A DNA stretch of 64,000 nucleotides. It comes from an uncultured bacterium (lineage in GTDB: Bacteria > Patescibacteriota > Microgenomatia > Levybacterales > UBA12049). A model generated the notes under the pieces. The model made no database searches. It had not been told where the DNA came from and worked only from the letters and a program-made list of their open reading frames with translations. The DNA is taken from positions 803,521-867,520 of the forward strand of contig CAWGXL010000011.1 in assembly GCA_963826535.1 (NCBI GenBank), read 5' to 3'. This document shows, in pieces, positions 10,625-63,898 of this stretch. Both the position numbers and the translations under genes were made by a program. Position 1 is the first letter of the stretch. Each line of letters starts with the position of its first letter.

Positions 10625-11377
10625 CTAAAAAATGATAGTATTGAGAGAAATTTTTTCTGCAAGATCAGGATGTGCCTGGCATATGGACTCCCTTAAAAAA
10701 GATTGGAATGTCATGGGGAATATCCCACTCCCGTTATAGCTTTGTTCTGTTATGTGTATTCTCTTGTTGGAATGTTGTTCTCGATACTTTCTTGTCATTA
10801 GTCTGCCTTTTTCGCTTTTAAGCGCATCAACGCCTGACGCAAAAATTGCATGCAGTTTAGGTTGAAGCCCATGTATTCTAACAATTTGATTTAATACTTC
10901 TCCGAGTTCTTCAAATTCTTCAGTGGGGTAAATATGCGAGTGGTTTAGATATCCATATTTATCTATGTGGACATCTATTTTTTTCTGAGGGATAATTGTG
11001 GCAAAGGCTATCATTTGATAAAGGGCAAATCCTCTTGTCTTATTCCAATGTTCATGCAATGTTTCATCAGAAATGTTAAATATCCCTGTCGCTGTACTTC
11101 TACTTGGTATGTCGAAAGCGGCATGTGTACGATCCATTGCAGTTTTGATATGTGAAAGTTGGCCGATGTTCAATTCGGAAAGAGCAAATTCTTTTGCGTC
11201 AAAATCCGGATCCCTGGTGAGGGCTTCAGCGGTGAGAAATGTTTTAGCACCAAAAGTTAGCGGGATAAGAGAATTTGCTTCTAAGTCAGCACGAAACCAG
11301 GTGTCTTTTACTACTGGTCTAGGATTTTCGATTTTTGCTCCTCGTGGAGGATTTTCGATTTCTAGCAATTGTTTCAT
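10625..11377 (-). CDS. Hypothetical protein
   Basis: 250 aa ORF with good coding look; N-terminus has duplicated IENP(P)RGAK motif matching a 22-bp DNA direct repeat at 11300-11370; no confident family assignment. Confidence 0.45.
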   Translation of the reverse strand: MKQLLEIENPPRGAKIENPRPVVKDTWFRADLEANSLIPLTFGAKTFLTAEALTRDPDFDAKEFALSELNIGQLSHIKTAMDRTHAAFDIPSRSTATGIFNISDETLHEHWNKTRGFALYQMIAFATIIPQKKIDVHIDKYGYLNHSHIYPTEEFEELGEVLNQIVRIHGLQPKLHAIFASGVDALKSEKGRLMTRKYREQHSNKRIHITEQSYNGSGIFPMTFQSFLRESICQAHPDLAEKISLNTIIF

Positions 11378-11459
11378 AGTCTTTATGTTTCAATCGCGCT
11401 TGTTATCTGCTCGCTTTCAGAATTCTTCTCAACTCTCCTTTCTTTGGTGTCTATCCCGC

Positions 11460-12635
11460 AATTATAACATAGGTTGTGTTGCCAGGTTTTTAGTGTTGTT
11501 TGTATAAGTTACGAAACATTTTAGACATTTCGTAACTATGGATCATTACGCAAAAGCATACCCAATCTTTAGTAGAATCAAAGGCATTGAGGAGGTGAAA
11601 GAGATGCTCAAAAGCCTTAAACGGTTCTCTAGGGATGAAGTCGCACAAGAACGATTACGCATCATTGAGTTTTATGACGAGTATGGAGAGCGTGCAACGA
11701 AAAAAGCTTTTCGAGTTGGAAGGAATACCCTTTGGGTTTGGAAGCAACGATTAAAAAACAATAAAAACAAACTATCGTCACTTATTCCTGATTCCACAAC
11801 GCCTAAATCCAAAAGACAAATGCAAACTCATCCAAAAGTACTTTCATATATCCGTTACTTGCGGGAGAAACATCCCCGTCTGGGAAAGGAAAAGATAAAA
11901 CCACTTTTAGATCAATATTGCAAGAAAGAAGAGCTAGTAGCAATAGGAGAATCAACTATCGGAAAGGTCATTAAAAGAAATAATTTCTATTTCCAAAAGA
12001 GTGGCAAGATCTATCATAATCCTTCACATAAATTTGCTAAGGCAAAAAGAAAGAAGCGGGACAGGATCAAGAAGCCGCCAAGACCGCAGTCTTTTGGCTA
12101 TATTGAAATGGATACAGTCATTAAATTTGTTGATGGAATAAAAGTATATTTTTTAACAGCCATAGATGTGAAGCTTAAATTTGCATTCAGCCTGCCCTAT
12201 GGCAAACTCAATAGCCGTAATACTGTTGATTTCTTCAAGAAGCTCCATTCAGTATATCCAATAACAATTATCACTGTGCAAACAGACAATGGCTTAGAGT
12301 TTCTTGGAGAATTTGAAGAATACCTTGAAAAACAAAATATACCACATGTTTTTATATATCCCAGATGCTGCAAAATCAACGGCACTATTGAACGGTTCAA
12401 TAGAACCATCCAAGAAGACTTTATTGATGAAAACTTACATATTATTGCAGACCGAAAACTATTCTCTTCCAAATTAATCGAATATTTGTTATTCTACAAT
12501 ACAGAGCGACCACATAAATCCTTGGGATTACAATCCCCATTGGGATATTTATTAAAACATGGAGGTATGTCTAAAAACTCCGTAACTTATACATTGTTTT
12601 GAATTAATAATTCTTTCTGTTATAATTCCCAATAA
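11460..12635 (+). mobile_element. IS481-family insertion sequence (single transposase ORF)
   Basis: DDE integrase-core transposase ORF flanked by imperfect inverted repeats: aattataacatagg at about 11463 and its complement ctgttataatt at about 12621. Confidence 0.55.
11538..12602 (+). CDS. IS481-family DDE transposase (rve integrase core)
   Basis: N-terminal HTH region, then DTV...TDNGLEF...YPRCCKINGTIERFNRTI...YNTERPHKSLG (rve-domain catalytic residues). Confidence 0.8.
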   Translation: MDHYAKAYPIFSRIKGIEEVKEMLKSLKRFSRDEVAQERLRIIEFYDEYGERATKKAFRVGRNTLWVWKQRLKNNKNKLSSLIPDSTTPKSKRQMQTHPKVLSYIRYLREKHPRLGKEKIKPLLDQYCKKEELVAIGESTIGKVIKRNNFYFQKSGKIYHNPSHKFAKAKRKKRDRIKKPPRPQSFGYIEMDTVIKFVDGIKVYFLTAIDVKLKFAFSLPYGKLNSRNTVDFFKKLHSVYPITIITVQTDNGLEFLGEFEEYLEKQNIPHVFIYPRCCKINGTIERFNRTIQEDFIDENLHIIADRKLFSSKLIEYLLFYNTERPHKSLGLQSPLGYLLKHGGMSKNSVTYTLF

Positions 12636-28798: not shown

Positions 28799-29077
28799 AT
28801 GAGAAGTTATGATTTGGTAGTTGTTTTGCGGCCGTCATTGGATGATAAACTGAGAAAGAAATTGATTGATGGGTTTAAGACAATACTTAAGGACATGAAG
28901 TTTACCAAAGAGGAAGAGTGGGGACAGAAGCCTCTGGCATATGTTATAAAAAAAGAAGTTGCAGGTTATTATTACCTTTATAAATTTGAGACTGAGAACA
29001 CAATCCCGGCGGGGTTTGAGCAAAAGCTCATGGCGCAGGATAATATATTGAGACACTTATTATTGAGGACAAAATAG
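28799..29077 (+). CDS. rpsF: 30S ribosomal protein S6
   Basis: MRSYDLVVVLRPSLDD... canonical S6 N-terminus; rpsF-ssb-rpsR order. Confidence 0.85.
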   Translation: MRSYDLVVVLRPSLDDKLRKKLIDGFKTILKDMKFTKEEEWGQKPLAYVIKKEVAGYYYLYKFETENTIPAGFEQKLMAQDNILRHLLLRTK

Positions 29078-29196
29078 TTAAAAGTTCAAAGTGCAAAGTT
29101 AAAAGTTAAGGAATATTTTATAAACAGTCTTTCATTAATAATAATTTTGAATTTTTCACTTTTAATTTTGAATTTGAGCGACTGAAAGGAGCGATT

Positions 29197-29748
29197 ATGG
29201 CTAAGAGTTTGAATAGGGCACAGTTGATCGGGAATTTGACACGGGATCCGGAGTTGAGATATACGCCTAACGGAAAGGCGGTTTGTAGTTTTGCGATTGC
29301 AACCAATAGATCTTGGACAACAGAGACGGGTGAGAAAAGGGATGAAGTGGATTTTCATAATATTGTTGCTTGGGGTAAGTTGGCCGAGATTTGTAGTCAA
29401 TATCTTGTCAAAGGACGAAAAGCATATGTTGAGGGTAGATTGACCACGCGGTCATGGGCAGGACAGGACGGTCAACAGAAAACGCGCACGGAAATTGTTA
29501 TTAATGATATGCTTATTTTAGATAATAAGGGAGGGGCTGTCACAGGTCAGGGCACCGAAAGCCCCCCACAACGCCCACGCTCCGAGGGGCAAGCCGGTGA
29601 GGCGAGGCCCGCTTCCGCTAAAAGCATTGGCGATGCGAAGAAGAAAACTGTGAGTAAGCAGAAGGCTGAATCCGAAGAACAAGGCGAGGAGCAAGCTCCG
29701 GCTGAGAAATCGGAGGAAGAAGTGTCACCAGAGGATATACCTTTTTAA
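29197..29748 (+). CDS. ssb: Single-stranded DNA-binding protein
   Basis: LNRAQLIGNLTRDPELRYTPNGKAVCSFAIATNR... OB fold; acidic C-terminal tail ending DIPF. Confidence 0.85.
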   Translation: MAKSLNRAQLIGNLTRDPELRYTPNGKAVCSFAIATNRSWTTETGEKRDEVDFHNIVAWGKLAEICSQYLVKGRKAYVEGRLTTRSWAGQDGQQKTRTEIVINDMLILDNKGGAVTGQGTESPPQRPRSEGQAGEARPASAKSIGDAKKKTVSKQKAESEEQGEEQAPAEKSEEEVSPEDIPF

Positions 29749-29898
29749 ACAAATTTTAAGCACGAATATCGAAGCACGAAATTCGAAACAATGACAAAAA
29801 TATAAATGACCAAATTCTCGAAACGTTTTTGTTATTTGTATTTTGAACATTTGAATTTGTTTCGGATTTCGATATTCGAATTTCGAATTTTTTAGAAT

Positions 29899-30147
29899 AT
29901 GGCAGAGAGAACTAGGCAGACAAAAAGAAGAAGAGTTGTATCAGTACCACAGGAATGTTATTTCTGTAAAGAAAAAATAGTTCCTCTATATTCCGATATT
30001 TCTGTTTTGCAACGGTATACCACTGATCGTGGAAAAATTATGGGGCGGTCACGGAGTGGTACTTGCGCAAAACACCAGAGAAGGCTCACTTCGAACATTA
30101 AATATGCGCGTCATCTGGCTCTTCTACCATTCGTTGGAGGAGAATAA
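29899..30147 (+). CDS. rpsR: 30S ribosomal protein S18
   Basis: 82 aa; CYFCKEKI...DYKNVSLLQRY-type S18 core. Confidence 0.85.
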   Translation: MAERTRQTKRRRVVSVPQECYFCKEKIVPLYSDISVLQRYTTDRGKIMGRSRSGTCAKHQRRLTSNIKYARHLALLPFVGGE

Positions 30148-30235
30148 ATAAATTCAAAATTCAAAATTACAAATTCCAAATAATATCAAAATTCTAATTT
30201 CCAAAATTCAAAACGTTTTGGATTTATGAATTTAA
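30136..30235. repeat. AT-rich repeat shared with 51921-52015 (about 90 bp), part of a large imperfect palindrome centred on AAAACGTTTT
   Basis: aataaattcaaaattcaaa..aaattccaaataatatcaaaattc.aat...aaaacgtttt is near-identical at both loci; the 30250-30330 arm is the reverse complement. Confidence 0.6.
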
Positions 30236-30332
30236 ATATTTGTCCCGCAAGGGGATCAAGAAATTTATTGGAATTTGGTGCTTTGGATTTGAGATTTATA
30301 AGTTGGTTTATTTTTGAATTGTAAATTGAATC

Positions 30333-31123: not shown

Positions 31124-32376
31124 GAGTGTTTCTTTTGGTTGTTATAGCAGGATTAATCGGGTATTATCTTGGTGTAACAAAGATAGCGATAGACCTCCGA
31201 AATTATCAGCCACATATTGAAGTCACCAGTAAAGCACCACCACCTTCTGCGAGTAATGTTGATTTTGGCCGCGTTTGGGCAGTTATGCAGAAATTGGAGT
31301 CTACCTACTATGATAAAAAAGCAATAGATGGGGAGAGGTTTCTTAATGGTGCGGTAGAGGGGGTAGTAAATAGTTTGGATGATCCATATACTGTGTATTT
31401 GCCGCCTGCGAAAAATAATGATTTCAAACAAGGGTTAGCAGGAAAGTTTGAGGGGATTGGCGCAGAACTTGGCATGAAAGGAAAACAGATTATTGTAGTC
31501 GCTCCGCTTGACGGCAGTCCTGCCCAAAAAGCAGGTTTGCAGCCCGGGGATGCGATTCTTAAAGTAAACGCGGAATTTACAAATGGTTGGACACTAAGCC
31601 AGGCGGTAGATAAGATCAGAGGTGAGAAGGGGACAGAGGTGACTTTAACTATTTTGCATCAGTCAGATGCAAAACCGAAAGAGATTAAATTGACCCGGGA
31701 TACTATAACTATCAAAAGTGTTACCACTTGGGTTAAAAGCGTAAAGGATATTGATGGAATAAAACCACAGGCAGCTGGGCTTAAGAATTTTCAGGATACA
31801 AAAGTTGTATATATTCGATTGTCACAATTTGGGGATAGCACAAATAAGGAATGGCAAAATGTAGCGACACAAGTTGACCGCACTCTTAAGGCAGATAAAG
31901 ATATTAGAGGTGTTATTTTGGACTTGAGGAATAATCCGGGAGGATATCTTACAGATTCTGTTTATATAGCATCTGAATTTATCCGGGACGGGACAGTTGT
32001 CAGTCAAGAAGACCGGAACGGAGATAGAACTTCGTATAAAGTAACAGGCCGCGGATTATTATTAGATGTACCGTTGATAGTTCTTGTTAATAAAGGATCG
32101 GCATCAGCAAGTGAGATTGTAGCAGGTGCTATGCAGGATCATACACGTGCAAAGTTGATCGGAGAGATTACTTTTGGAAAAGGAACTATCCAGCAAGCAG
32201 AGGATCTGGGTGGAGGGGCCGGTCTTCATATCACAATCGCGAAATGGCTCACGCCGGACGGAAACTGGGTACACTTGAAAGGCCTCACGCCGGATATCTT
32301 GGTCGATCCGGATAGTAAAGATCCATCTCATGATATACAGCTTGAGAAAGCAGTTGAGGAATTGGTGAAAGAATAG
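31060..32376 (+). CDS. S41 family C-terminal processing peptidase (CtpA-like) with PDZ domain
   Basis: N-terminal TM anchor; PDZ (GIGAELGMKGKQIIVVAPLDGSPAQKAGLQPGDAILKVN); S41 core (LDLRNNPGG, catalytic SASASE...GKGT). Confidence 0.8.
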   Translation: MERQEILPEQPRKSNNIPSRLRVFLLVVIAGLIGYYLGVTKIAIDLRNYQPHIEVTSKAPPPSASNVDFGRVWAVMQKLESTYYDKKAIDGERFLNGAVEGVVNSLDDPYTVYLPPAKNNDFKQGLAGKFEGIGAELGMKGKQIIVVAPLDGSPAQKAGLQPGDAILKVNAEFTNGWTLSQAVDKIRGEKGTEVTLTILHQSDAKPKEIKLTRDTITIKSVTTWVKSVKDIDGIKPQAAGLKNFQDTKVVYIRLSQFGDSTNKEWQNVATQVDRTLKADKDIRGVILDLRNNPGGYLTDSVYIASEFIRDGTVVSQEDRNGDRTSYKVTGRGLLLDVPLIVLVNKGSASASEIVAGAMQDHTRAKLIGEITFGKGTIQQAEDLGGGAGLHITIAKWLTPDGNWVHLKGLTPDILVDPDSKDPSHDIQLEKAVEELVKE

Positions 32377-32513
32377 TTTAAAGTTCAAAATGCAAAGTTC
32401 AAAATTAAAGTTAATAATTTAAAGTTATCCATCAATTTTGAATTTTAAATTGCAACATTTCATTTTAACTTTGAAGTTTAGATCCCCATTGGGGACACTA
32501 TTAATTTGTTTCT

Positions 32514-39540: not shown

Positions 39541-39578
39541 TAAATGGAATAAGTTACTCAAGTTATAAAAAAATGATT

Positions 39579-39606
39579 TGTCATTCCCCTGGACAGGGGA
39601 ATCCAG
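39579..39606. repeat. Palindromic element, left copy of an empty pair
   Basis: tgtcattcccctggacaggggaatccag. Confidence 0.65.
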
Positions 39607-39661
39607 AAGATATAAATATTTCTACATTAAAAAAGTAAATGGAAAAACTTATTTTTACCTA

Positions 39662-39689
39662 CTGGGTTCCCGCGTTCGCGGGAATGACA
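39662..39689. repeat. Palindromic element, right copy of an empty pair
   Basis: ctgggttcccgcgttcgcgggaatgaca; reverse complement of the 34589 copy type; 55-bp AT-rich spacer between the two. Confidence 0.65.
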
Positions 39690-39712
39690 ATAAACTGGGT
39701 AGCACGAGCAAG

Positions 39713-51921: not shown

Positions 51922-52015
51922 TAAATTCAAAATTCAAAGCACCAAATTCCAAATAATATCAAAATTCAAATAATTAAATCCAAAACGTTTTTAATTTAGA
52001 ATTTTGATATTGGGA
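51921..52015. repeat. AT-rich repeat, second copy of the 30136-30235 element
   Basis: ataataaattcaaaattcaaagcaccaaattccaaataatatcaaaattcaaataattaaatccaaaacgttttt. Confidence 0.6.
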
Positions 52016-52060
52016 TTTATTTGTGATTTGTTATTTTGGATTTGGAATTTGATTTTTATT

Positions 52061-53752: not shown

Positions 53753-55816
53753 TTGGAAGATAATGATTTTATGAATTTTAAGAAAACAATTCCAAATATT
53801 TATAAAAGTTGGGGTATGTACTTAGTAGTATTAATGTGTCTATTCTTCCTGGCGATTACTTTCTTTACTGTTAACTCACTGCAAAAAGAAAAAACTAATT
53901 ATATAAGTAAGGCTCAATCATCCTTGGTACTTACAGCCTTTCCGGGTGCTGAAGGATTTGGTGCTAAGGCAACGGGCGGACGCGGGGGGGCTGTCATCAA
54001 AGTTACTAATTTGAATACATCCGGAATGGGTAGTTTACAGTGGGCAGTCGATCAACCTGGAGCGCGTGTAATAGTTTTTGGGGTTTCGGGGGTTATTCCC
54101 GGTGATGTTCGTATTTCCCACGGCGATATCACTATTGCCGGCCAAACAGCACCCGGCGCGGGTATTACGATCAACGGGCATCTGTCTACCCAGTATGGAA
54201 CCACGTTTGGCAATATAATCGTTCGTCATATTCGCGTACGACCACCGGGATTATCAGCCAGTTGGCCTGCCGGTCAGCATGACTCTATTCAGTTTTCTAC
54301 GAACAATACTATGATCTTGGATCACGTTGACATGTCCTATGGCGTTGATGAGACGGTGGATATGTGGGGAGGAGCGCGGGATATTACTGTACAGTGGTCA
54401 GCGATCACTTTTCCCGATACAGCGAGTTCGCATAATGTCGGATTCATCAATGGACCGGGAGGAGGCCGAGTTTCTATCCACCACAATCTTTTTGCGCATA
54501 GCAGATCCCGCAATCCGGCGCTTTCAGATGGGCCTTCCGATACGGTCAATAATGTCGTATACAACTTCCGTGAAGGGTTCGTGCACCACAACCCTGTAGC
54601 CGGAGACTTCAACATTATCGGGAACTATTTTAAATCTGGAAGTAATGCAGCAACCTCACCATTATGGTTTGACCCGGAAAATACACCAACCTCGCGGTAT
54701 TTCGTCTCTGATAACTACGTCGATCATCCCGGGAAATTTGTGGGTATTGTCAATAATCCATACACAACAGCCGGCTTTAGCACGTACTCCTTTGCGTGCT
54801 GCGGCATAACCTCTGCTCACTTCAATTATTCTACCGCTTTCGATTACAGTAGTTTTACGGGGTATGCACCCCTTACCGTGAATTCGCCCCAGACGGCCTA
54901 TACTACTGTATTGGATAAAGCAGGTACGTGGCCGCGTGATATTGTAAATCGGTGGGCAGTGGATGATGTTAAGAACCGCACGGGAGTGTGGGGGGCGCGT
55001 CGGCCTGCAAATTTCATGGATGGGTTAAATCCCGGTGTATATCCTGCCGATGTGGACAATGATGGTATAGCGGATAGTTGGGAAGCATCTCACGGCCTCA
55101 GTTCTTCTAATCCTAATGATTATAATTCTCTCCGGCCTTCCGGGTATACGGCGATCGAAGAATACATTAATGAACTGGCTGATTCTTTGACCGGTGCTAC
55201 TACCACACCCCCTCCATCACCAAGCGAACCCACTCCTACCAGCATTACAACCCCTACTTCGACACCATTACCGACATTTACCCCTATCCCTACACCAACA
55301 CCGACTCCCATTTTTACACCAACACCTACTCCTACATCTGTGCCTACTCCAACTCCAACAAAGACTCCGACACCAACTCCCGTCCCCACAGGCAATGGAC
55401 TGACAGGCTTATACTTTCCCAATAGAACCCTAAGCGGTGCACCTACTCTTGCCAGGATTGATCCTGCAGTCAATTTCATTTGGGCAACCGGTGCGCCCTC
55501 TCCCGCTCTTCCCTCCAATAACTTCTCTGTACGCTGGACAGGATATGTAATGCCACAATACTCCCAGCAATATACCTTCTATACTCAAAGCGATGATGGA
55601 GTAAGAGTGTGGGTAAACGGAATAAGGATAATCAATAATTGGACTGATCATGGGTCAACAGAAAATAGCGGAAAAATAAACCTCACAGCCGGAGTAAAAT
55701 ACACAATCAAACTAGAGTACTATGAAAAACAGGGCAATGCTCTTATCCAATTACGCTGGAGCAGTCCCTCCCAAGCAAAAGTTATTATTCTTCAGAGCAG
55801 GTTATATAGTAATTGA
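53753..55816 (+). CDS. Secreted right-handed beta-helix (pectate-lyase-like) protein with Pro/Thr linker and C-terminal PA14 domain
   Basis: N-terminal TM/signal; GAEGFGAKATGGRGG...WAVDQPGARVIVFGVSG pectate-lyase-type start; PTPTPTP linker (55200-55390); PA14 signature GLYFPN...FSVRWTGYV...YTFYTQSDDGVRVWVNG...KYTIKLEYYE. Confidence 0.7.
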   Translation: MEDNDFMNFKKTIPNIYKSWGMYLVVLMCLFFLAITFFTVNSLQKEKTNYISKAQSSLVLTAFPGAEGFGAKATGGRGGAVIKVTNLNTSGMGSLQWAVDQPGARVIVFGVSGVIPGDVRISHGDITIAGQTAPGAGITINGHLSTQYGTTFGNIIVRHIRVRPPGLSASWPAGQHDSIQFSTNNTMILDHVDMSYGVDETVDMWGGARDITVQWSAITFPDTASSHNVGFINGPGGGRVSIHHNLFAHSRSRNPALSDGPSDTVNNVVYNFREGFVHHNPVAGDFNIIGNYFKSGSNAATSPLWFDPENTPTSRYFVSDNYVDHPGKFVGIVNNPYTTAGFSTYSFACCGITSAHFNYSTAFDYSSFTGYAPLTVNSPQTAYTTVLDKAGTWPRDIVNRWAVDDVKNRTGVWGARRPANFMDGLNPGVYPADVDNDGIADSWEASHGLSSSNPNDYNSLRPSGYTAIEEYINELADSLTGATTTPPPSPSEPTPTSITTPTSTPLPTFTPIPTPTPTPIFTPTPTPTSVPTPTPTKTPTPTPVPTGNGLTGLYFPNRTLSGAPTLARIDPAVNFIWATGAPSPALPSNNFSVRWTGYVMPQYSQQYTFYTQSDDGVRVWVNGIRIINNWTDHGSTENSGKINLTAGVKYTIKLEYYEKQGNALIQLRWSSPSQAKVIILQSRLYSN

Positions 55817-55891: not shown

Positions 55892-57217
55892 ATGATAGCG
55901 ATATTCAAAAAGTATTTATATTTTCCGGTTGCTTGGTATTTCCGGTTCTTTGCTGGTATTAGGTTGCGCCGTTGGTCTCCGCGGATTGTGGTTGTAACGG
56001 GTTCCAATGGAAAGACAACGCTGCTTCATTTGCTCGAGGCGCAATTTGGAAGTAAGGCTAAGTATTCACATCATGCCAATAGCAGCTTTGGGATTCCCTT
56101 TGATATTCTTGGTCTGCGAAGGACTAAATTATTTAAGTCGGAATGGATAGGATTATTTTTTCGGGCGCCATTTAGAGCTTTTTTATCTCCTTTTCAAGAA
56201 AAAATATATATAGTTGAAGCTGATGTTGACAGACCGGGAGAAGGGAAATTTCTTGCTTCATTTTTAAAACCTGAAGTTGTATTGTGGATTAGTTTGGGGA
56301 GGACACATGGCATGAATTTTGAAAAACTCGTAAGACAGAAAAAATTTCAAACTGTTGAGGAAGCTATTGCTTTTGAATTTGGATTTTTTTTGGAATATTG
56401 TCAAAAACTTGCGTTAATTAATGGAGATTCACCATTGATAGTTAAGCAAACTAAAAGATTAAGAGTTGATGCAAAAATAATTAAAAAAAATGAACGTTTT
56501 GTAAAATATGAAGTGGATCTGGCCGGAACAAATTTTCAAATTGATGGAAGTAGATATATATTTGAGGGATTACTACCGGAAGAGATATTTTATTCGATTG
56601 TTATGTGCAAAAGCGTACTGGAGTATTTTGATCTACCGTTTGATCAATCATTTTCAAAATTAGTATTACCACCTGGAAGAAGTTCGATTTTTCAAGGAAT
56701 TCGTGGGGTTACAATTGTGGATAGTAGTTATAACGCAAATCTCTCATCAATGAATACAATTTTGCTTATGTATGATAAATTTCTCGCAACTCATAAATGG
56801 GGAGTGCTTGGAGATATGTTGGAACAAGGAGAAGGTGAGCAGAAAGAACATGAGAGATTGGCTGAATTGATTGGGCTTTATGATTTTGAGAGAATTATTT
56901 TGATGGGGCCGAGGGTGAGTAAGTATACATATCCGGTATTAATTCAAAAGTCAAAAGTCAAAAGTCAAAATCACAACTCAAAAGTAAAAAGTGATAACGA
57001 CAAGAGGGAAGATCTAGTTATAGAGAAGTTTTTGGGGCCGAGGGAGACGTTGGATTATTTATTGGCGAATTTGCGAGGAGGGGAGACGATACTTTTTAAG
57101 GGTGCGAGATTTATGGAGGGAATTATTGAGAATTTATTGTTGGATAAAAAAGATAAAGTGAAGTTGTCCCGACGGGAAGAGGTTTGGGAGAAAAGGAGGA
57201 AGGGATGGGGATTATGA
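55892..57217 (+). CDS. Mur ligase family protein (MurF-like)
   Basis: P-loop VVTGSNGKTTLLHLLEAQFG; contains in-frame heptamer-repeat insert SKVKSQNHNSKVKSD (56946-56995). Confidence 0.65.
   Translation: MIAIFKKYLYFPVAWYFRFFAGIRLRRWSPRIVVVTGSNGKTTLLHLLEAQFGSKAKYSHHANSSFGIPFDILGLRRTKLFKSEWIGLFFRAPFRAFLSPFQEKIYIVEADVDRPGEGKFLASFLKPEVVLWISLGRTHGMNFEKLVRQKKFQTVEEAIAFEFGFFLEYCQKLALINGDSPLIVKQTKRLRVDAKIIKKNERFVKYEVDLAGTNFQIDGSRYIFEGLLPEEIFYSIVMCKSVLEYFDLPFDQSFSKLVLPPGRSSIFQGIRGVTIVDSSYNANLSSMNTILLMYDKFLATHKWGVLGDMLEQGEGEQKEHERLAELIGLYDFERIILMGPRVSKYTYPVLIQKSKVKSQNHNSKVKSDNDKREDLVIEKFLGPRETLDYLLANLRGGETILFKGARFMEGIIENLLLDKKDKVKLSRREEVWEKRRKGWGL
56946..56995. repeat. Heptamer tandem repeat (AAAAGTC x3 + degenerate units) inside Mur ligase gene
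   Basis: aaaagtcaaaagtcaaaagtcaaaatcacaactcaaaagtaaaaagtg. Confidence 0.6.
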
Positions 57218-57954
57218 TTAGTTCAAAGTTCAAAGTTCAAAGTTCAAAGTTAAAAAATGAAAAAATTTATATTTTGCATGGGTGGGCGTATACTACTGAT
57301 AAGTGGCAGCCGTTGATTGAAAAACTTAGGAAAGAGGGAATTGAGGCTGTAATGCTTAAGATACCCGGGCTTACTGCACCACTCAATGAGGTTTGGAATC
57401 TCGATAATTATGTTGGCTGGTTGAAGGAAATATTGGATAAAGAAAACGATAGGGTGATTTTACTTGGGCACTCAAATGGCGGACGTATAGCTCTTACTTT
57501 TACTGCTAAATATCCTGAAAAAGTAAAACAATTAATTCTTATCGACAGCGCCGGAATTTATCATAACGAACTACCTATACAGATAAAGCGGTTTGTATTT
57601 GGGAATATCGCTAGGGTAGGACGCAAATTTACTAATTCTCAAACTTTGCGAAAATTACTCTATAAATTGACAAGAGAAAGTGATTATGAGAGAGCTAATC
57701 CATTGCTTCGAAAGACTATGCAGAATTTAGTTCGTACAGATATATCGGATTTATTTCCGCATATTCACTTACCTGTAACGATTATTTGGGGTGAGCTGGA
57801 TGAAATGACATCACTCTCTGATGGGAAAATTATGCATCAGAGCTTAAAGAATTCGACATTTCATGTTATTCGTGGGGCAAGACATTCACCCATGTTTACC
57901 CATGTAGAAGAGGTGGGGGAGATAATAATAAAAGTATTAAGTATTAAGTATTAA
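57184..57954 (+). CDS. Alpha/beta hydrolase fold protein
   Basis: YILHGW...LLGHSNGG (nucleophile elbow GHSxG)...GARHSP; N-terminus has heptamer repeat SSKFKVQSSKLK; C-terminal 7 aa and stop are encoded by the GTATTAA repeat. Confidence 0.65.
   Translation: MGEKEEGMGIMISSKFKVQSSKLKNEKIYILHGWAYTTDKWQPLIEKLRKEGIEAVMLKIPGLTAPLNEVWNLDNYVGWLKEILDKENDRVILLGHSNGGRIALTFTAKYPEKVKQLILIDSAGIYHNELPIQIKRFVFGNIARVGRKFTNSQTLRKLLYKLTRESDYERANPLLRKTMQNLVRTDISDLFPHIHLPVTIIWGELDEMTSLSDGKIMHQSLKNSTFHVIRGARHSPMFTHVEEVGEIIIKVLSIKY
57220..57251. repeat. Heptamer tandem repeat (AGTTCAA x4) at 5' end of hydrolase gene
   Basis: agttcaaagttcaaagttcaaagttcaaagtt. Confidence 0.65.
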
Positions 57955-57974
57955 GTATTAAGTATTAAGTATTA
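57934..57974. repeat. Heptamer tandem repeat (GTATTAA x5.9) spanning stop codon of hydrolase gene and abutting DegT start
   Basis: gtattaagtattaagtattaagtattaagtattaagtatta followed directly by ATG of next gene. Confidence 0.8.
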
Positions 57975-59224
57975 TGGCGATTTTTAATTCATTGGGATCA
58001 AATTATAGTTTTGGCCTTGCCTGCCGGCAGGCGGGTTTTGCAATACTGAGTTTATTCGCGAATGACAGTAAGAAGTGTGGTTTAAAACTCAGTAAATTTT
58101 TGGAGGAAAAATATGGCGGGCAGGTTTTATTGACATATAAAGGGCGAGAAGCCCTTCGACTGGCTTTTAGGGCAATTAATCAGAAGGGTGCCGAGGTTGG
58201 TATTTGTGGATTTACTTGTTATGCGGTATACGAAGCGGTTACTTTGGAGGGTTACAAGGTACGGTATTTGGATATAGCAGAGGGAGATTTGAATTTTTCT
58301 TTTGCTAATCTCGTGCAAGGCATTAAAAAATATCCATTAATAAAAGTGATTATAATTCAGAATACTCTTGGTTATCCTTGCGAGATAGAGAAGATTGCGA
58401 AATATTGTAAAGAAAAAGGGATTATTTTAATTGAGGATTTGGCGCATTCGATTGGAGCAAAATATGAAGATGGAAGGGAAGTAGGAACTGTTGGTGATTT
58501 TACGGTGTTGTCTTTTAGTCAGGACAAGATGGTTGATGGAATTTCAGGGGGAGCGGTAATAGTTAAAAGTTCAAAGTTCAAAATTCCCCACAAGAGGACT
58601 ACCTTCTTCGAAGGGTCGCAAAGTTTGGAACTTGGAGAATTACCTATGAGTCAACAGACAAGGGATAGATTTTATCCGTTATTTACTTGGATTATTAGAA
58701 AGACTTATGAATTTGGATTGGGGAAATTGTTGCATGCTTTTCTAAAAAAATTTAATTTGCTTTCCCAGCCGATGAGCAATTTGGATAAAGACATAATTTA
58801 TGGATTGCCGGATTGGTATTGCTGTTTAATTTATAGGCAATTTAGAAGCATGGAAGGTGATTTGAATCATCGAAGAAAGATAGCATCAGTGTACGCGGAT
58901 AGACTCAAAAAGGATGTTTTGTCTAGTATACTAGTCAGAAAAATACCTAAGGCGGCGAATTTGCGTTTTCCGATTTTTGTTGCGAATAGGAGTAATCTTG
59001 TTGAATTTTTGAAGAAGAAATATATTTTCGTATCAGATATTTGGTATGATGCACCGATTGCGCCGAAAAAATATTTACATATGACAGATTATAAAAATCA
59101 GTGTCCAAATGCGGAAAAAATTTCTAAAGAGATATTAAATCTGCCGACACATAGGAATGTGAGCGAGATGGACGCGAAATTTATTGCTGAAAAAGTGAAT
59201 GAATGGGTGGAAGGAAAAACTTGA
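57974..59224 (+). CDS. DegT/DnrJ/EryC1/StrS-family PLP-dependent aminotransferase (divergent)
   Basis: IILIEDLAHSIGAKYEDGREVGTVGDFTVLSFSQDKMV (PLP-Lys region); contains GC palindrome gcctgccggcaggc (58019-58032) and AAAGTTC repeat (about 58560-58582) in-frame. Confidence 0.6.
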   Translation: MAIFNSLGSNYSFGLACRQAGFAILSLFANDSKKCGLKLSKFLEEKYGGQVLLTYKGREALRLAFRAINQKGAEVGICGFTCYAVYEAVTLEGYKVRYLDIAEGDLNFSFANLVQGIKKYPLIKVIIIQNTLGYPCEIEKIAKYCKEKGIILIEDLAHSIGAKYEDGREVGTVGDFTVLSFSQDKMVDGISGGAVIVKSSKFKIPHKRTTFFEGSQSLELGELPMSQQTRDRFYPLFTWIIRKTYEFGLGKLLHAFLKKFNLLSQPMSNLDKDIIYGLPDWYCCLIYRQFRSMEGDLNHRRKIASVYADRLKKDVLSSILVRKIPKAANLRFPIFVANRSNLVEFLKKKYIFVSDIWYDAPIAPKKYLHMTDYKNQCPNAEKISKEILNLPTHRNVSEMDAKFIAEKVNEWVEGKT

Positions 59225-60251
59225 AATGTCGAGTATAACTATAAAACCAGTAGAAAATGAGAAGGAGTGGGAAAATTTTCTTGATAAACATGATGAGGCT
59301 AATTTTCTTCAGTCATGGTATTGGGGCGAATTTCATAGGAAGTTGGGAAAAGATGTTGTCAGACGCGGATTTTATCGTGATAAGCAACTAGTTGGCGCGA
59401 TGCTTTCAATAGTTGAAAATGCTAAGAGGGGGAGATATTTGACTGTGCCGGGTGGGCCGATTATTGATTGGGAGGATGAGTTATTGGTTGATGCTGCATT
59501 TGTTGAAATGAAGCGGGAGGCACTCGAGATGGATTGTGTTTTTGTCCGTATACGGCCGCAGCTTGTCACAGATGATTCAGTAAAAAAGAAATTTAGGCAG
59601 TATGGATGCAAAGATTCGCCTATGCATTTACACGCAGAGCTTTCGAATATATTGGATATTACTAAATCAGAAGAGGAGTTGTCGGCACAGATGAGAAAGA
59701 CTACAAGATATGAAATAAGAAAGGCTCAAAATTTATCAATAATGATTGAGAAAAGTAAAGATGAAAAATCCATAAAAGCATTTTATGATCTACAGATTGA
59801 AACCGCCAAGCGGCAGAAGTTTGTGCCTTTTTCATTTTCTTTTTTTCGGGAGCAATTTAAGGTATTCTTTGAATCGGATCGCGGGCTTTTATACACTGCT
59901 TTATATGATGGGAAAGTATTGGCACAGGCATTTATTATTTTTTACGGTGCTGAGGCGGTTTATCATTATGGGGCGAGTACTGATGAGGGGAGGAAGTATC
60001 CGGGAGCTTATCTTCTCCAATGGGAAGCGATTAAAGAGGCGAAGCGGCGAGGGATGAGGCGATATAATTTTTGGGGAGTAGCTCCCCTTGAGGCAAAGGA
60101 TCACAGGTTTTATGGAGTGTCGGTGTTTAAGAGAGGGTTTGGAGGACAGGATGTTTCGTATTTGCACGCGCAGGATTTAGTAATTGATAAGTTTCGGTAT
60201 TTGATTAATTATTTGGTTGAGATGGTTAGGAAGAGAATAAGGAAGGTGTAA
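59199..60251 (+). CDS. FemAB-family peptidoglycan bridge aminoacyltransferase (FemX-like)
   Basis: 350 aa; WEEFL..H....FLQSWEW N-terminal pattern; tandem GNAT-like halves; TRYEIRKAQ motif. Confidence 0.65.
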   Translation: MNGWKEKLEMSSITIKPVENEKEWENFLDKHDEANFLQSWYWGEFHRKLGKDVVRRGFYRDKQLVGAMLSIVENAKRGRYLTVPGGPIIDWEDELLVDAAFVEMKREALEMDCVFVRIRPQLVTDDSVKKKFRQYGCKDSPMHLHAELSNILDITKSEEELSAQMRKTTRYEIRKAQNLSIMIEKSKDEKSIKAFYDLQIETAKRQKFVPFSFSFFREQFKVFFESDRGLLYTALYDGKVLAQAFIIFYGAEAVYHYGASTDEGRKYPGAYLLQWEAIKEAKRRGMRRYNFWGVAPLEAKDHRFYGVSVFKRGFGGQDVSYLHAQDLVIDKFRYLINYLVEMVRKRIRKV

Positions 60252-62258: not shown

Positions 62259-63842
62259 GTGGTAGAAGTGGAAGATATGAAGAAATCTATAATGATTACG
62301 GATTTGGATTTGATAAAGCAAGACGCGGCAAATATTGTAATGGACGCAATACGCGCTAATCTCGTTTCTTATGTTGATGTCAGAATAGAAGCATCGGAAG
62401 GGGCCGGTTCTTATGTTGAGGATGATAATCCACGGCAAACAAGTAAGGATTGGGGTTTGTCATTGGGCGTTCGGGTAATTGGCGGAGATAAGTTTCACTC
62501 GTCAGGATTTTATGGAAGAGGTTTAGGTGTTGTTGATTTTCAAAATTTTACTACTGTGCTGCTTGAGGCATTAGAGATTGCTAGAGATCGTGCGATTTTA
62601 AATGCGAAATATAAGAGTGTTTTTAAGGATTCATACAAACTTTTTGGGAAAACGGTTCAGGCAGTAAAGCTTGCTCCAATCGAAGTGAATCATACAGTCG
62701 TGGCTCCGGAATTTGAAATTGATCCGCGTAAGGTAACTCCAAAACAAATTACTGACTATGCTATGCAGGCGGCACAAGCAGCGAAAAACCATCATTCATT
62801 TGTGAAGAGGGTTGAAGTCGCGATAAATACCTCGATAAGCCGGCAAATGTTTATTTCTTCTGAGGGGGCAATGATTGATCAAGGCACATGTAGTAGTGGA
62901 GGGACAGTTTTTATTGTAAGCGCAAACGATTCGGGTGATAAGCCGGTTGATCTTTATCATCACACAGGTAATCAATTGGGATTTGAGGCATTAACAAAGG
63001 GGAAGAATGCACATGGACTGACATTTGAAAAATTTGCAAGACATATAGCAGATGAGACAGTACAGCTTTGTAATGCTAAACCCGCACCTGCGATAGATAA
63101 GCCTGCGACAGTTGTACTTGATCCTGATCTTGTAGCACTTTTTGCACATGAGATTATCGGGCATCCATCGGAATTGGATAGGGTACTTAAATGGGAAACA
63201 GGGTATGCAGGAAGGTCCTGGTTTTTTAAAGATTTAGAGAATAATATGATTGGTCAACAGGTCGGTTCTCCAATTCTCACTGCATTTTCCGATCCGACTC
63301 TAAAGGGTGGCTACGGACATTATCTTTATGATGATGAGGGAACTAAGGCAAAACGTGTGTATCATATAAATAATGGGGTATATCAGGATTTTATGAATAG
63401 CCGGCAGACAGCGGCAGTTTTGGATGTTGAGCCGAACGGGCATTATAAAGCGAATGATGCATCAGTAGTACCACTTATCCGTATGTCAGTATCGGCAATT
63501 GCAGCCGGTAAATCTGATCCAAAGAAAATTATCTCGGAAGTAGAACATGGATATTATGCAGTCGGTCATAGAATCCCATCTATTTCCGAGTCACGGGAGA
63601 ATTTCCAAATTGCGCCGCGTCTGATTTACGAGATCAAAAATGGACAAATTGGGCAGGTATACCGGAATGGTCGCATAACCTCCGATTCAAAAAACTTTTT
63701 TATGTCAATTGACGCGCTTGGAAATGACTTTAATATTTTTCCTATACCTAACTGCGGTAAAGGTCAGCCTATGCAAGCGAAGCAGGTCGGAAATGGGGGT
63801 CCGACAGCGAGGGGAAAAGCTAAAATCGCCAGAGGGGATTAG
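62259..63842 (+). CDS. tldD: TldD/PmbA family metallopeptidase
   Basis: 527 aa; HEIIGHPSELD HExxxH zinc site in the position conserved in TldD; next gene is its paralogue partner. Confidence 0.7.
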   Translation: MVEVEDMKKSIMITDLDLIKQDAANIVMDAIRANLVSYVDVRIEASEGAGSYVEDDNPRQTSKDWGLSLGVRVIGGDKFHSSGFYGRGLGVVDFQNFTTVLLEALEIARDRAILNAKYKSVFKDSYKLFGKTVQAVKLAPIEVNHTVVAPEFEIDPRKVTPKQITDYAMQAAQAAKNHHSFVKRVEVAINTSISRQMFISSEGAMIDQGTCSSGGTVFIVSANDSGDKPVDLYHHTGNQLGFEALTKGKNAHGLTFEKFARHIADETVQLCNAKPAPAIDKPATVVLDPDLVALFAHEIIGHPSELDRVLKWETGYAGRSWFFKDLENNMIGQQVGSPILTAFSDPTLKGGYGHYLYDDEGTKAKRVYHINNGVYQDFMNSRQTAAVLDVEPNGHYKANDASVVPLIRMSVSAIAAGKSDPKKIISEVEHGYYAVGHRIPSISESRENFQIAPRLIYEIKNGQIGQVYRNGRITSDSKNFFMSIDALGNDFNIFPIPNCGKGQPMQAKQVGNGGPTARGKAKIARGD

Positions 63843-63898
63843 TAGTTAGCTGTCAGCTTTCAGCTATCAGCAATTAGATTTTATTTTAAACGAAGTTT

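Follow-up and report, generated by a model that had tools for sequence, protein, structure and literature searches.

Heptanucleotide tandem repeats within and between the genes of a cell-wall operon in an AT-rich Microgenomates bacterium

Genomes of the candidate phyla radiation (CPR; Patescibacteria) are tiny and tightly packed, and little is understood of how they generate variation. The stretch of DNA analysed here (the window; 64,000 nt, 38% GC) comes from an uncultured bacterium of the Microgenomates group (GenBank assembly GCA_963826535.1, contig CAWGXL010000011.1, positions 803,521 to 867,520). It includes an operon with genes for a MurF-like Mur ligase, an alpha/beta hydrolase, a DegT-type aminotransferase and a FemAB-family protein (Mur-Hyd-DegT-Fem), in which four arrays of tandemly repeated 7-nt units (heptamers) are found. 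The closest described systems are the heptanucleotide long simple sequence repeats and short tandemly repeated repetitive sequences (LSSR/STRR), which, as summarised in PMC4692102 and in Mrazek 2007 cited there, include the STRR of Calothrix/Nostoc, the GGGGA(C/T)T arrays of Nostoc and the GGGAATC arrays of Xanthomonas. According to the same summaries (Mrazek 2007 via PMC4692102, PMC4679880), in many bacteria no other long simple-sequence repeats are as strongly over-represented as heptamers, polymerase slippage has been proposed to form them, and the heptamer repeats of related Xanthomonas genomes are positionally conserved.

With the LSSR/STRR the arrays described here share the 7-nt tandem unit, the many dispersed loci, the over-representation of period 7 relative to other long periods, the pairing of some arrays as inverted copies able to form hairpins, the proposed slippage, and the location between matching genes of related species with varying sequence and length. 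They differ in their CPR host, in having A/T-rich units of many different kinds that coexist, and in that about 60% of them are located within long open frames, where translation runs through them in all three phases, whereas those reported from Xanthomonas, Nostoc and Beggiatoa are mostly intergenic. A mostly intergenic location is a feature of distribution and not a defining one, and several of the present arrays lie in verified genes. The repeats therefore belong to a known kind; what is unusual is the high share inside open reading frames (ORFs) and the recurrence at matching protein sites across species. A literature search found no report of heptamer repeats in CPR bacteria.

TAACTGA direct repeats, known from marine Beggiatoaceae and from some Cyanobacteria and Bacteroidetes (PMC4679880), are likewise heptamers, occur in 2–6 copies directly upstream of start codons, and have a suggested, not a shown, role in translation. 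Their unit contains stops in all three frames, so that the forward orientation is confined to gene junctions and ORF copies occur only in the stop-free orientation; it is a single unit conserved across phyla for which horizontal spread is suspected, in contrast to the diverse units here, which follow the local sequence. Heptanucleotide tracts of Haemophilus influenzae mediate phase variation and comprise (ATCTTTC)n in the hmw1A/hmw2A promoters, (AATTTTG)14 inside hmw1a and (AACAACC)n at a TonB-dependent receptor (PMC2651432, PMC8262952). They resemble the present arrays in the 7-nt unit, the number of which alters expression or frame of surface-related genes; the proven tracts have 8–38 units, are strain-variable and have been seen frameshifted. 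Tandem repeats of Borg extrachromosomal elements, as outlined in bioRxiv 10.1101/2022.05.18.492195, create disordered protein regions and are similar in being perfect, recently formed and arising independently inside ORFs, to which they add low-complexity segments. Borg repeats belong to archaeal extrachromosomal elements, whereas the 7-nt unit here forces reading in three frames, in steps of 21 nt.

The arrays are probably heptanucleotide simple-sequence repeats of AT-rich Microgenomates that were made by slippage, filtered by tolerance and are long-lived. Array calls were made with Tandem Repeats Finder (TRF) and an exact-run scan of tandem repeats, and copy numbers are those of TRF unless given as perfect. 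The genes of the operon, assigned by Pfam, and their arrays are as follows.

55892–57217, + strand: MurF-like Mur ligase gene, 441 aa (Mur_ligase_M, Mur_ligase_C)
56944–56992, + strand: array 1, TCAAAAG, about 7 units, encoding QKSKVKSQNHNSKVKS inside a 17-aa insertion in the Mur loop
57205–57954, + strand: alpha/beta hydrolase gene (also placed by junction comparison and a scan for Shine-Dalgarno motifs)
57220–57255, + strand: array 2, AGTTCAA × 5.1, hydrolase codons 6–17, translated as SSKFKVQSSKLK
57932–57974, + strand: array 3, AAGTATT × 6.1 perfect, hydrolase C-terminus KVLSIKY, TAA stop (57952–57954) and 19-nt spacer
57974–59224, + strand: DegT/DnrJ/EryC1-type aminotransferase gene, 416 aa
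58561–58586, + strand: array 4, AGTTCAA × 3.7, translated KSSKFKI, directly after the conserved GGAVIV at the start of the DegT interdomain linker
59199–60251, + strand: FemAB-family gene, fourth in the operon, without an array in the window

Array 1 consists of 7.1 copies with an 86% match, including 3.9 perfect copies at 56944–56970, and array 2 of 5.1 copies with a 96% match (4.6 perfect). All 6.1 copies of array 3 are perfect by both TRF and the exact-run scan, and array 4 has 3.7 copies with an 89% match. Thus, all four 7-nt tandem repeats named in the original prediction, which had been made by a model from the sequence alone, are present where it placed them. Its site for AAAGTTC in DegT is right as well, with the copy number raised from 2.5 to 3.7, and of the four consecutive cell-wall genes of which it spoke three are touched by arrays and the fourth, FemAB, is not. 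The three coding arrays of the window are all located in this operon. With 7-nt units arranged head to tail in at least three copies, the operon arrays conform to the heptanucleotide LSSR/STRR type.

A scan of the 64-kb window for exact tandem runs of about two or more units found period 7 alone among periods 4–15. At a threshold of four units and 80%, seven period-7 segments were present, as compared with 0.0 in shuffles, and there were zero segments of periods 5, 6 and 8–15. The excess of period 7 in the window, which holds at least nine period-7 loci, is far beyond chance.

The hydrolase has one exact copy in the database (a single-member protein cluster); its next relatives are at most 74% identical and all belong to Patescibacteria of the Microgenomates group, including Levyibacteria and Daviesbacteria. 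A comparison set of 80 Microgenomates loci from different species, 1.27 Mb in total and named L001 and so on, was taken from a scan of genome collections, and the gene order Mur-Hyd-DegT-Fem is kept in 75 of them. One detector, used throughout, found 87 period-7 arrays in the 80 loci, as compared with 15, 13, 7 and 3 arrays of periods 5, 6, 8 and 9, respectively, and with 0–1 arrays in first-order shuffles of the same loci. Hence, as in the LSSR/STRR, period 7 is in excess over both the other periods and shuffles of matched composition, at many dispersed loci that recur in related genomes. Array density falls with GC content, from 9.2 per 100 kb below 40% GC to 4.1 at 40–45% and 0.6 at 45% or above. 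Heptamer arrays number 0.78 per 10 kb within the operon, as compared with 0.65 elsewhere, and the operon is not a heptamer hot-spot. Stop-free frames of at least 150 aa, as opposed to curated genes, enclose 57 of 94 arrays, 36 of those at least 120 nt from either end.

The arrays would originate by replication slippage in place on A-rich native sequence, and they persist only where extra sequence is tolerated, namely at gene boundaries of the tightly coupled operon (ancestral ATGA overlaps), in the MurF C-domain loop and in the DegT interdomain linker. The 7-nt unit is read in all three frames, and an intragenic array must therefore be stop-free in every sense-strand phase and add up to a net length divisible by 3; at a junction, the stop codon may lie within the array. 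Such arrays would be potential frameshift hot-spots, yet they appear to behave as long-lived, frame-preserving sequence and not as a dedicated ON/OFF switch, unit number probably being free to change only in the unconstrained junction array.

The positions of arrays in other species are consistent with this account. Their operons contain 25 arrays, 24 of which occupy six sites, comprising four gene boundaries and two hypervariable loops.

ligase C-domain loop
ligase/hydrolase junction: 11 species
hydrolase/DegT junction
DegT linker: 5 species
DegT/FemAB junction: L060 and L070
just after FemAB

Repeat units at one site differ among species. In the DegT linker, for example, arrays lie at the position of array 4 in L002, L003, L010, L050 and L060 and are built of other units (AAAATTC, AAAAATC, AAAGATC, AAATTTC and AAGTGAG). 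The two upstream junctions are ancestrally overlaps, of the form KWGL*/MGT...KKIYILHGW and ...ATGA..., respectively. At both intragenic sites, alignments with proteins of known structure end or are interrupted. The closest solved relatives of the Mur ligase are MurF proteins, and the best-scoring alignment (MurF 3zl8) ends at residue 353, the start of array 1; the C-terminal-domain loop that houses this array is hypervariable, with a length of 28–72 aa in 64 orthologues. Alignments of DegT break between residues 198 and 272, and its interdomain linker is likewise hypervariable (3–45 aa, mode 24, usual sequence RNKKY...). In the window, array 1 results in a Lys/Ser-rich 17-aa loop insertion in the ligase and array 4 in a rewritten start of the DegT linker. 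Comparison of the loci thus shows persistence at sites that tolerate extra sequence.

At the ligase/hydrolase junction, the hydrolase start ATG 57205 corresponds to the conserved MG(T/I) start and is preceded by an AAGGAGG Shine-Dalgarno (SD) motif 5 nt upstream; an alternative start, ATG 57214, overlaps the Mur stop as ATGA. Array 2 belongs to a 42-nt in-frame insertion (six units, 14 codons) between the hydrolase start codon and the first beta-strand, and the ILHGW motif follows the Mur stop after 53 nt, as compared with 11 nt in most species. The AlphaFold model of the hydrolase (mean predicted local distance difference test score, pLDDT, 84) has residues 1–15 as low-confidence coil and the first strand from residue 16, and the insertion is thus predicted to be a 14-codon unstructured N-terminal extension. 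Insertions at the hydrolase start of other species are +27 or +75 nt and are read through from the conserved start; the remaining species with an array at this junction have stops inside the array and a new ATG after it. Just 3' of array 2, an out-of-frame ATGAAAAAATTTATATTTTGCAT at 57257–57280 resembles the ATGA-overlap start of the orthologues (MKKIYILH), having an A-run of 6, not 4 or 7, and lying out of frame with the hydrolase body. ATG 57257 was considered as the displaced ancestral hydrolase start and rejected, since the start shared with the orthologues is MG(T/I) at 57205, from which the exactly 42 inserted nt are read in frame.

The hydrolase/DegT junction in relatives is usually an ATGA overlap (spacer –4). 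In the window, array 3 gives the hydrolase seven new C-terminal residues and a stop, followed by a 19-nt spacer that has no SD motif and ends at the DegT ATG 57974, and so uncouples the overlap. The nearest relative of the window, L001 (about 72% nucleotide identity), has AAGAATT × 5 at this junction in place of AAGTATT × 6, and both arrays are perfect. Their units are in register with the native codons, K-V-L in the window and K-E-L in L001, and this match at the hydrolase end would exemplify origin in place. The differences between the two arrays have the signature of contraction and re-expansion, and such turnover appears to be visible only at the unconstrained junction array.

Reading frame is kept throughout. 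All 17 translated operon arrays of the window and its relatives are in frame, and a tblastn search of the four proteins against the 80 loci found no frame break at any array. Three breaks were found elsewhere: one is a masked N-run, one a non-repeat indel, and in the third the DegT gene of L028 is split. This gene (10665–11763) is divided exactly at the interdomain linker into two ORFs (188 and 180 aa) that overlap in different frames, with no array there.

Lengths are also stable. The Mur loop has 52 aa in both the window and L001, where the array is degenerate and in the same register, and the 3' part of array 1 is also common to L070 and L055; the array 1 tract is thus old and stable in length. 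Orthologous arrays of equal length are present in the pairs L046/L052, L070/L072 and L060/L070, species about 30% diverged, and their conservation equals or exceeds that of the coding sequence on either side. Variation was also sought within single species. The collections searched contain no second assembly of the source species, the hydrolase cluster having a single member and an exact-protein contig look-up being empty, and a gapped DNA pattern across array 3 gave 0 matches in metagenome contigs. No array variation was found in two related species (6 and 7 assemblies), a weak test with imperfect arrays and nearly clonal assemblies. The L070 species is represented by one further contig, whose array is identical, again a weak test with an imperfect array only. 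None of 14 multi-member hydrolase clusters has a terminal array.

Arrays are translated in other genes of the relatives as well, in either orientation, including genes for a prepilin peptidase, type IV pilin leader peptides, a MurD-like C-domain loop and a signal peptide. Prepilin peptidase (PilD-like) genes with one or two arrays were observed in five species (L055 266–1123, L060 2195–3073, L072 618–1478, L056 1881–2783 and L037 1356–2207, minus strand); their sense is T-rich and gives hydrophobic segments with a 7-residue period, e.g. NFQFSIF and FTIYHLP, or of the FSIFNFQ type. Near PilD-like genes lie type IV pilin genes with arrays in the leader peptide (L018 547–1047 and 3298–3798; L060 1130–1711).

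Heptanucleotide repeats are accordingly a regular feature of AT-rich Microgenomates, filling junctions, building intercistronic hairpins and entering proteins as linkers with a 7-residue period, as leader peptides and as insertions in loops. They account for one class of unusual low-complexity segments, and for gene overlaps that have been uncoupled, in these genomes, and start and stop calls at heptamer tracts should be made with caution by annotators.

Several points weigh against this account. Slippage was inferred and was not seen as an event, and the share of arrays inside ORFs depends on the use of stop-free frames. Array identity is 35/37 nt in L046/L052 and 30/30 nt in L060/L070, as compared with about 75–80% in the flanking coding sequence; conservation of junction arrays above their flanks hints at a sequence constraint beyond tolerance. 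Furthermore, the 19-mer ATAGTTAAAAGTTCAAAGT, variant first unit included, is identical at 58559–58577 (DegT linker) and 29074–29092 (rpsF stop), TAGTT opens all four AAAGTTC-type arrays of the window, and unit sharing amounts to 20% within genomes and 11.5% between genomes (permutation p about 0.002), none of which is predicted by purely independent slippage in place. Because of the conserved junctions, the shared 19-mer and TAGTT starts, and the unit sharing within genomes, a cis-acting role in translation and copying of arrays between loci were kept as rivals.

In the first of these, the arrays would be mRNA cis-elements, either unstructured A/U-rich spacers for SD-less initiation and coupling or periodic binding sites of the S1 or Csp type, and the unit number at a junction would act as an expression rheostat. 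Junction arrays abut start codons, with a distance of 0 nt in the window, L001 and L021, and many genes of the window lack an SD motif and start right after A/U-rich array sequence. The RNA fold of the four operon arrays is no better than that of shuffles (z –0.3 to –1.1), with no inverted partner, which speaks for this reading, and the conservation above flanks in L046/L052 and L060/L070 points the same way. A like proposal exists for the TAACTGA repeats that precede start codons in Beggiatoaceae, and each monomer of CspB binds a single heptamer (PMC4679880). However, units vary by site and species, which argues against a sequence-specific binder, for which no candidate factor was identified; a plain ATGA overlap without an array suffices in most species; and two of the four arrays are deep inside ORFs, far from starts. 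A cis-acting role is an unlikely explanation of the arrays. A hairpin or attenuator reading of the four operon arrays was dropped because they show no RNA structure.

The original prediction had proposed a slipped-strand switch. As contingency loci, the arrays would allow slipped-strand mispairing to switch reversibly the hydrolase, the MurF-like ligase and DegT, with a polar effect on FemAB, so that the population would vary in cell-wall structure. Changes of –3 to +3 units were simulated for each array. Gain or loss of one or two units cut the Mur ligase to 362–369 aa, the hydrolase to 13–20 aa and DegT to 222–233 aa, and a 3-unit change retained the frame at arrays 1, 2 and 4. With –2 to +3 units in array 3, the hydrolase and DegT proteins were unaltered and the stop-to-ATG spacer ranged from 5 to 40 nt. 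Hence, a one-unit change alters frame or spacing, as in contingency loci. The predicted frameshift arithmetic holds for arrays 1, 2 and 4, the unit length not being a multiple of 3; of what was predicted for array 3, spacing to the next start does shift, but the C-terminus and frame of the hydrolase do not change within this range.

Other features also suit a switch. Array 2 lies five codons after the start, which is a classical position; the genes are envelope-related by Pfam, and arrays are present in pilin leaders and PilD of relatives; arrays 2 and 3 are perfect, which suggests youth; the junction array differs from that of L001 in unit and number; and one of the tracts with proven heptanucleotide phase variation in H. 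influenzae is inside an ORF (PMC2651432). Contingency loci are, however, expected as ON and OFF alleles among genomes, and 0/17 translated arrays are out of frame. Array lengths are equal across species about 30% diverged, and the imperfect arrays do not vary among 6 and 3 independent assemblies of the two related species, nearly clonal as these are. Tracts of 3.7–7.1 TRF units (at most 6.1 perfect) are outside the range of 8–38 units known to switch experimentally (PMC2651432, PMC8262952), and the longest and most perfect array, array 3, cannot shift any frame. Nor are arrays concentrated in genes of the contingency type (surface, restriction-modification); they are genome-wide, flank rpsF, ssb, rpsR and dnaB, and so lie also between housekeeping genes, with no enrichment in the operon. 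A dedicated switch is unlikely in view of the short tracts, the lack of OFF alleles and the stable lengths, and contingency as an explanation of the arrays is rated as quite improbable; of the predicted switch, the frame arithmetic for three arrays remains. If the repeats did slip at useful rates, which is unlikely on present evidence, this would be the first contingency-type mechanism in CPR envelope genes.

The arrays outside the operon bear on copying between loci. The following were found in the window.

29074–29165, + strand: palindrome rpsF-ssb, AAAGTTC-type array from the rpsF TAG stop (29074–29110) paired with an inverted array at 29142–29165; fold z = –1.5, weak
29748–29893, + strand: palindrome ssb-rpsR, TRF units TTTCGAA and the 14-mer AAGCACGAAAATCG; RNA fold –38.6 kcal/mol, z = –4.7
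30143–30299, + strand: palindrome after rpsR, AAATTCA array, centre AAAACGTTTT; fold z = –4.1
32373–32479, + strand: palindrome after the S41 peptidase gene, AAAGTTC-type, from the TAG stop; fold z = –2.6
51923–52050, + strand: palindrome upstream of dnaB, AAATTCA array, 68-nt arms, centre AAAACGTTTT; fold z = –3.9
63840–63877, + strand: post-stop array, unit family (T/C)AGCTNT, beginning at the TAG stop of ORF 62259–63842

The palindromes consist of forward and inverted heptamer arrays and are AU-rich and imperfect, the T-rich arm often abutting the next ATG; four of the five have a fold z of –2.6 to –4.7. Intergenic arrays begin at the stop codons of rpsF, ssb, rpsR, the S41 peptidase gene and others. 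AAAGTTC, thought in the original prediction to be the building block of the palindromes near the ribosomal protein genes, does build those after rpsF (29074–29110/29142–29165) and the S41 peptidase gene (32373–32479), but those at 30143–30299 and 51923–52050 are made of AAATTCA and that at 29748–29893 of other units. TAGC/CAGC arrays related to the one at 63840–63877 occur at several positions in L013, L058, L070 and L073.

Repetitive extragenic palindromic sequences and bacterial interspersed mosaic elements (REP/BIME) are intercistronic palindromes of enterobacteria. The palindromes at 29748–29893, 30143–30299 and 51923–52050 are similar in being imperfect, in lying right after stops inside operons and in folding significantly better than shuffles; they differ in being built of heptamer arrays, AU-rich and with arms of up to 68 nt. 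The four operon arrays are not REP-like, as they form no imperfect inverted repeat with a stable hairpin.

A propagating element would account for these arrays by spread of copies through microhomology-mediated template switching or ectopic conversion, with seeding at TAG-TT, e.g. at stop codons, and with the palindromes as its full form, similar to REP or miniature inverted-repeat transposable elements (MITE). Besides the 19-mer common to the rpsF stop and DegT and the TAGTT starts, six intergenic arrays begin exactly at a stop codon, the centre AAAACGTTTT is common to two palindromes, near-identical AATTC(A/T)T arrays are present at several loci and in several genomes, and units are shared more within than between genomes. 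On the other side, the ATAGTT of DegT belongs to its native coding sequence, where it specifies the conserved I-V in GGAVIV, so that the ATAGTTAAAAGTTCAAAGT match may consist of a seed and a common unit. The arrays have neither target-site duplications nor defined ends, a transposase is absent, junction units follow local native codons, and the within-genome statistic is inflated by partner arms of hairpins and by paralogous pilin genes. That the arrays represent such an element is rated as quite improbable.

Similarly improbable is a combination of these readings, in which active, lineage-specific copying of arrays between loci, seeded at stop codons and TAG-TT, would be followed by co-option of the junction copies as SD-less coupling spacers, and unit number would tune, or switch through frameshifts, the expression of the peptidoglycan-modifying operon. 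If this were true, ultra-small episymbionts could vary their envelope and split, fuse or extend genes, the DegT of L028, split at the array site, being one example. Heptad (coiled-coil) protein repeats were rejected as the cause of the arrays because the period is 7 nt, not 21, and because the arrays also occur in non-coding DNA.

Some further features of the window were noted. An inverted repeat at 39578–39690 with 41-nt arms (TTGTCATTCCCC...GGGAATGACAA) is located between convergent ORFs and contains GC-rich sub-hairpins; similar palindromes of the GTCATTCC...GGAATGAC type are present between the ligase and hydrolase genes of L053, and the relative of L008 has a related GGATGACA form. Directly upstream of the operon, a 687-aa PA14-domain protein has a Pro/Thr-rich linker (TPTPTP...) encoded at 55315–55380 with 12- and 18-nt periodicity, and this segment, with 47% GC, is the sole part of the region that is GC-rich. 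Nearly everywhere in the window the GC skew has strongly positive values (+0.1 to +0.34); it dips only at 44–48 kb, within a run of minus-strand genes at about 39.7–51.3 kb, and at 54–56 kb, in the GC-rich plus-strand PA14 gene. Strand disparity of an unusual kind has been reported for other Microgenomates (PMC7143001).

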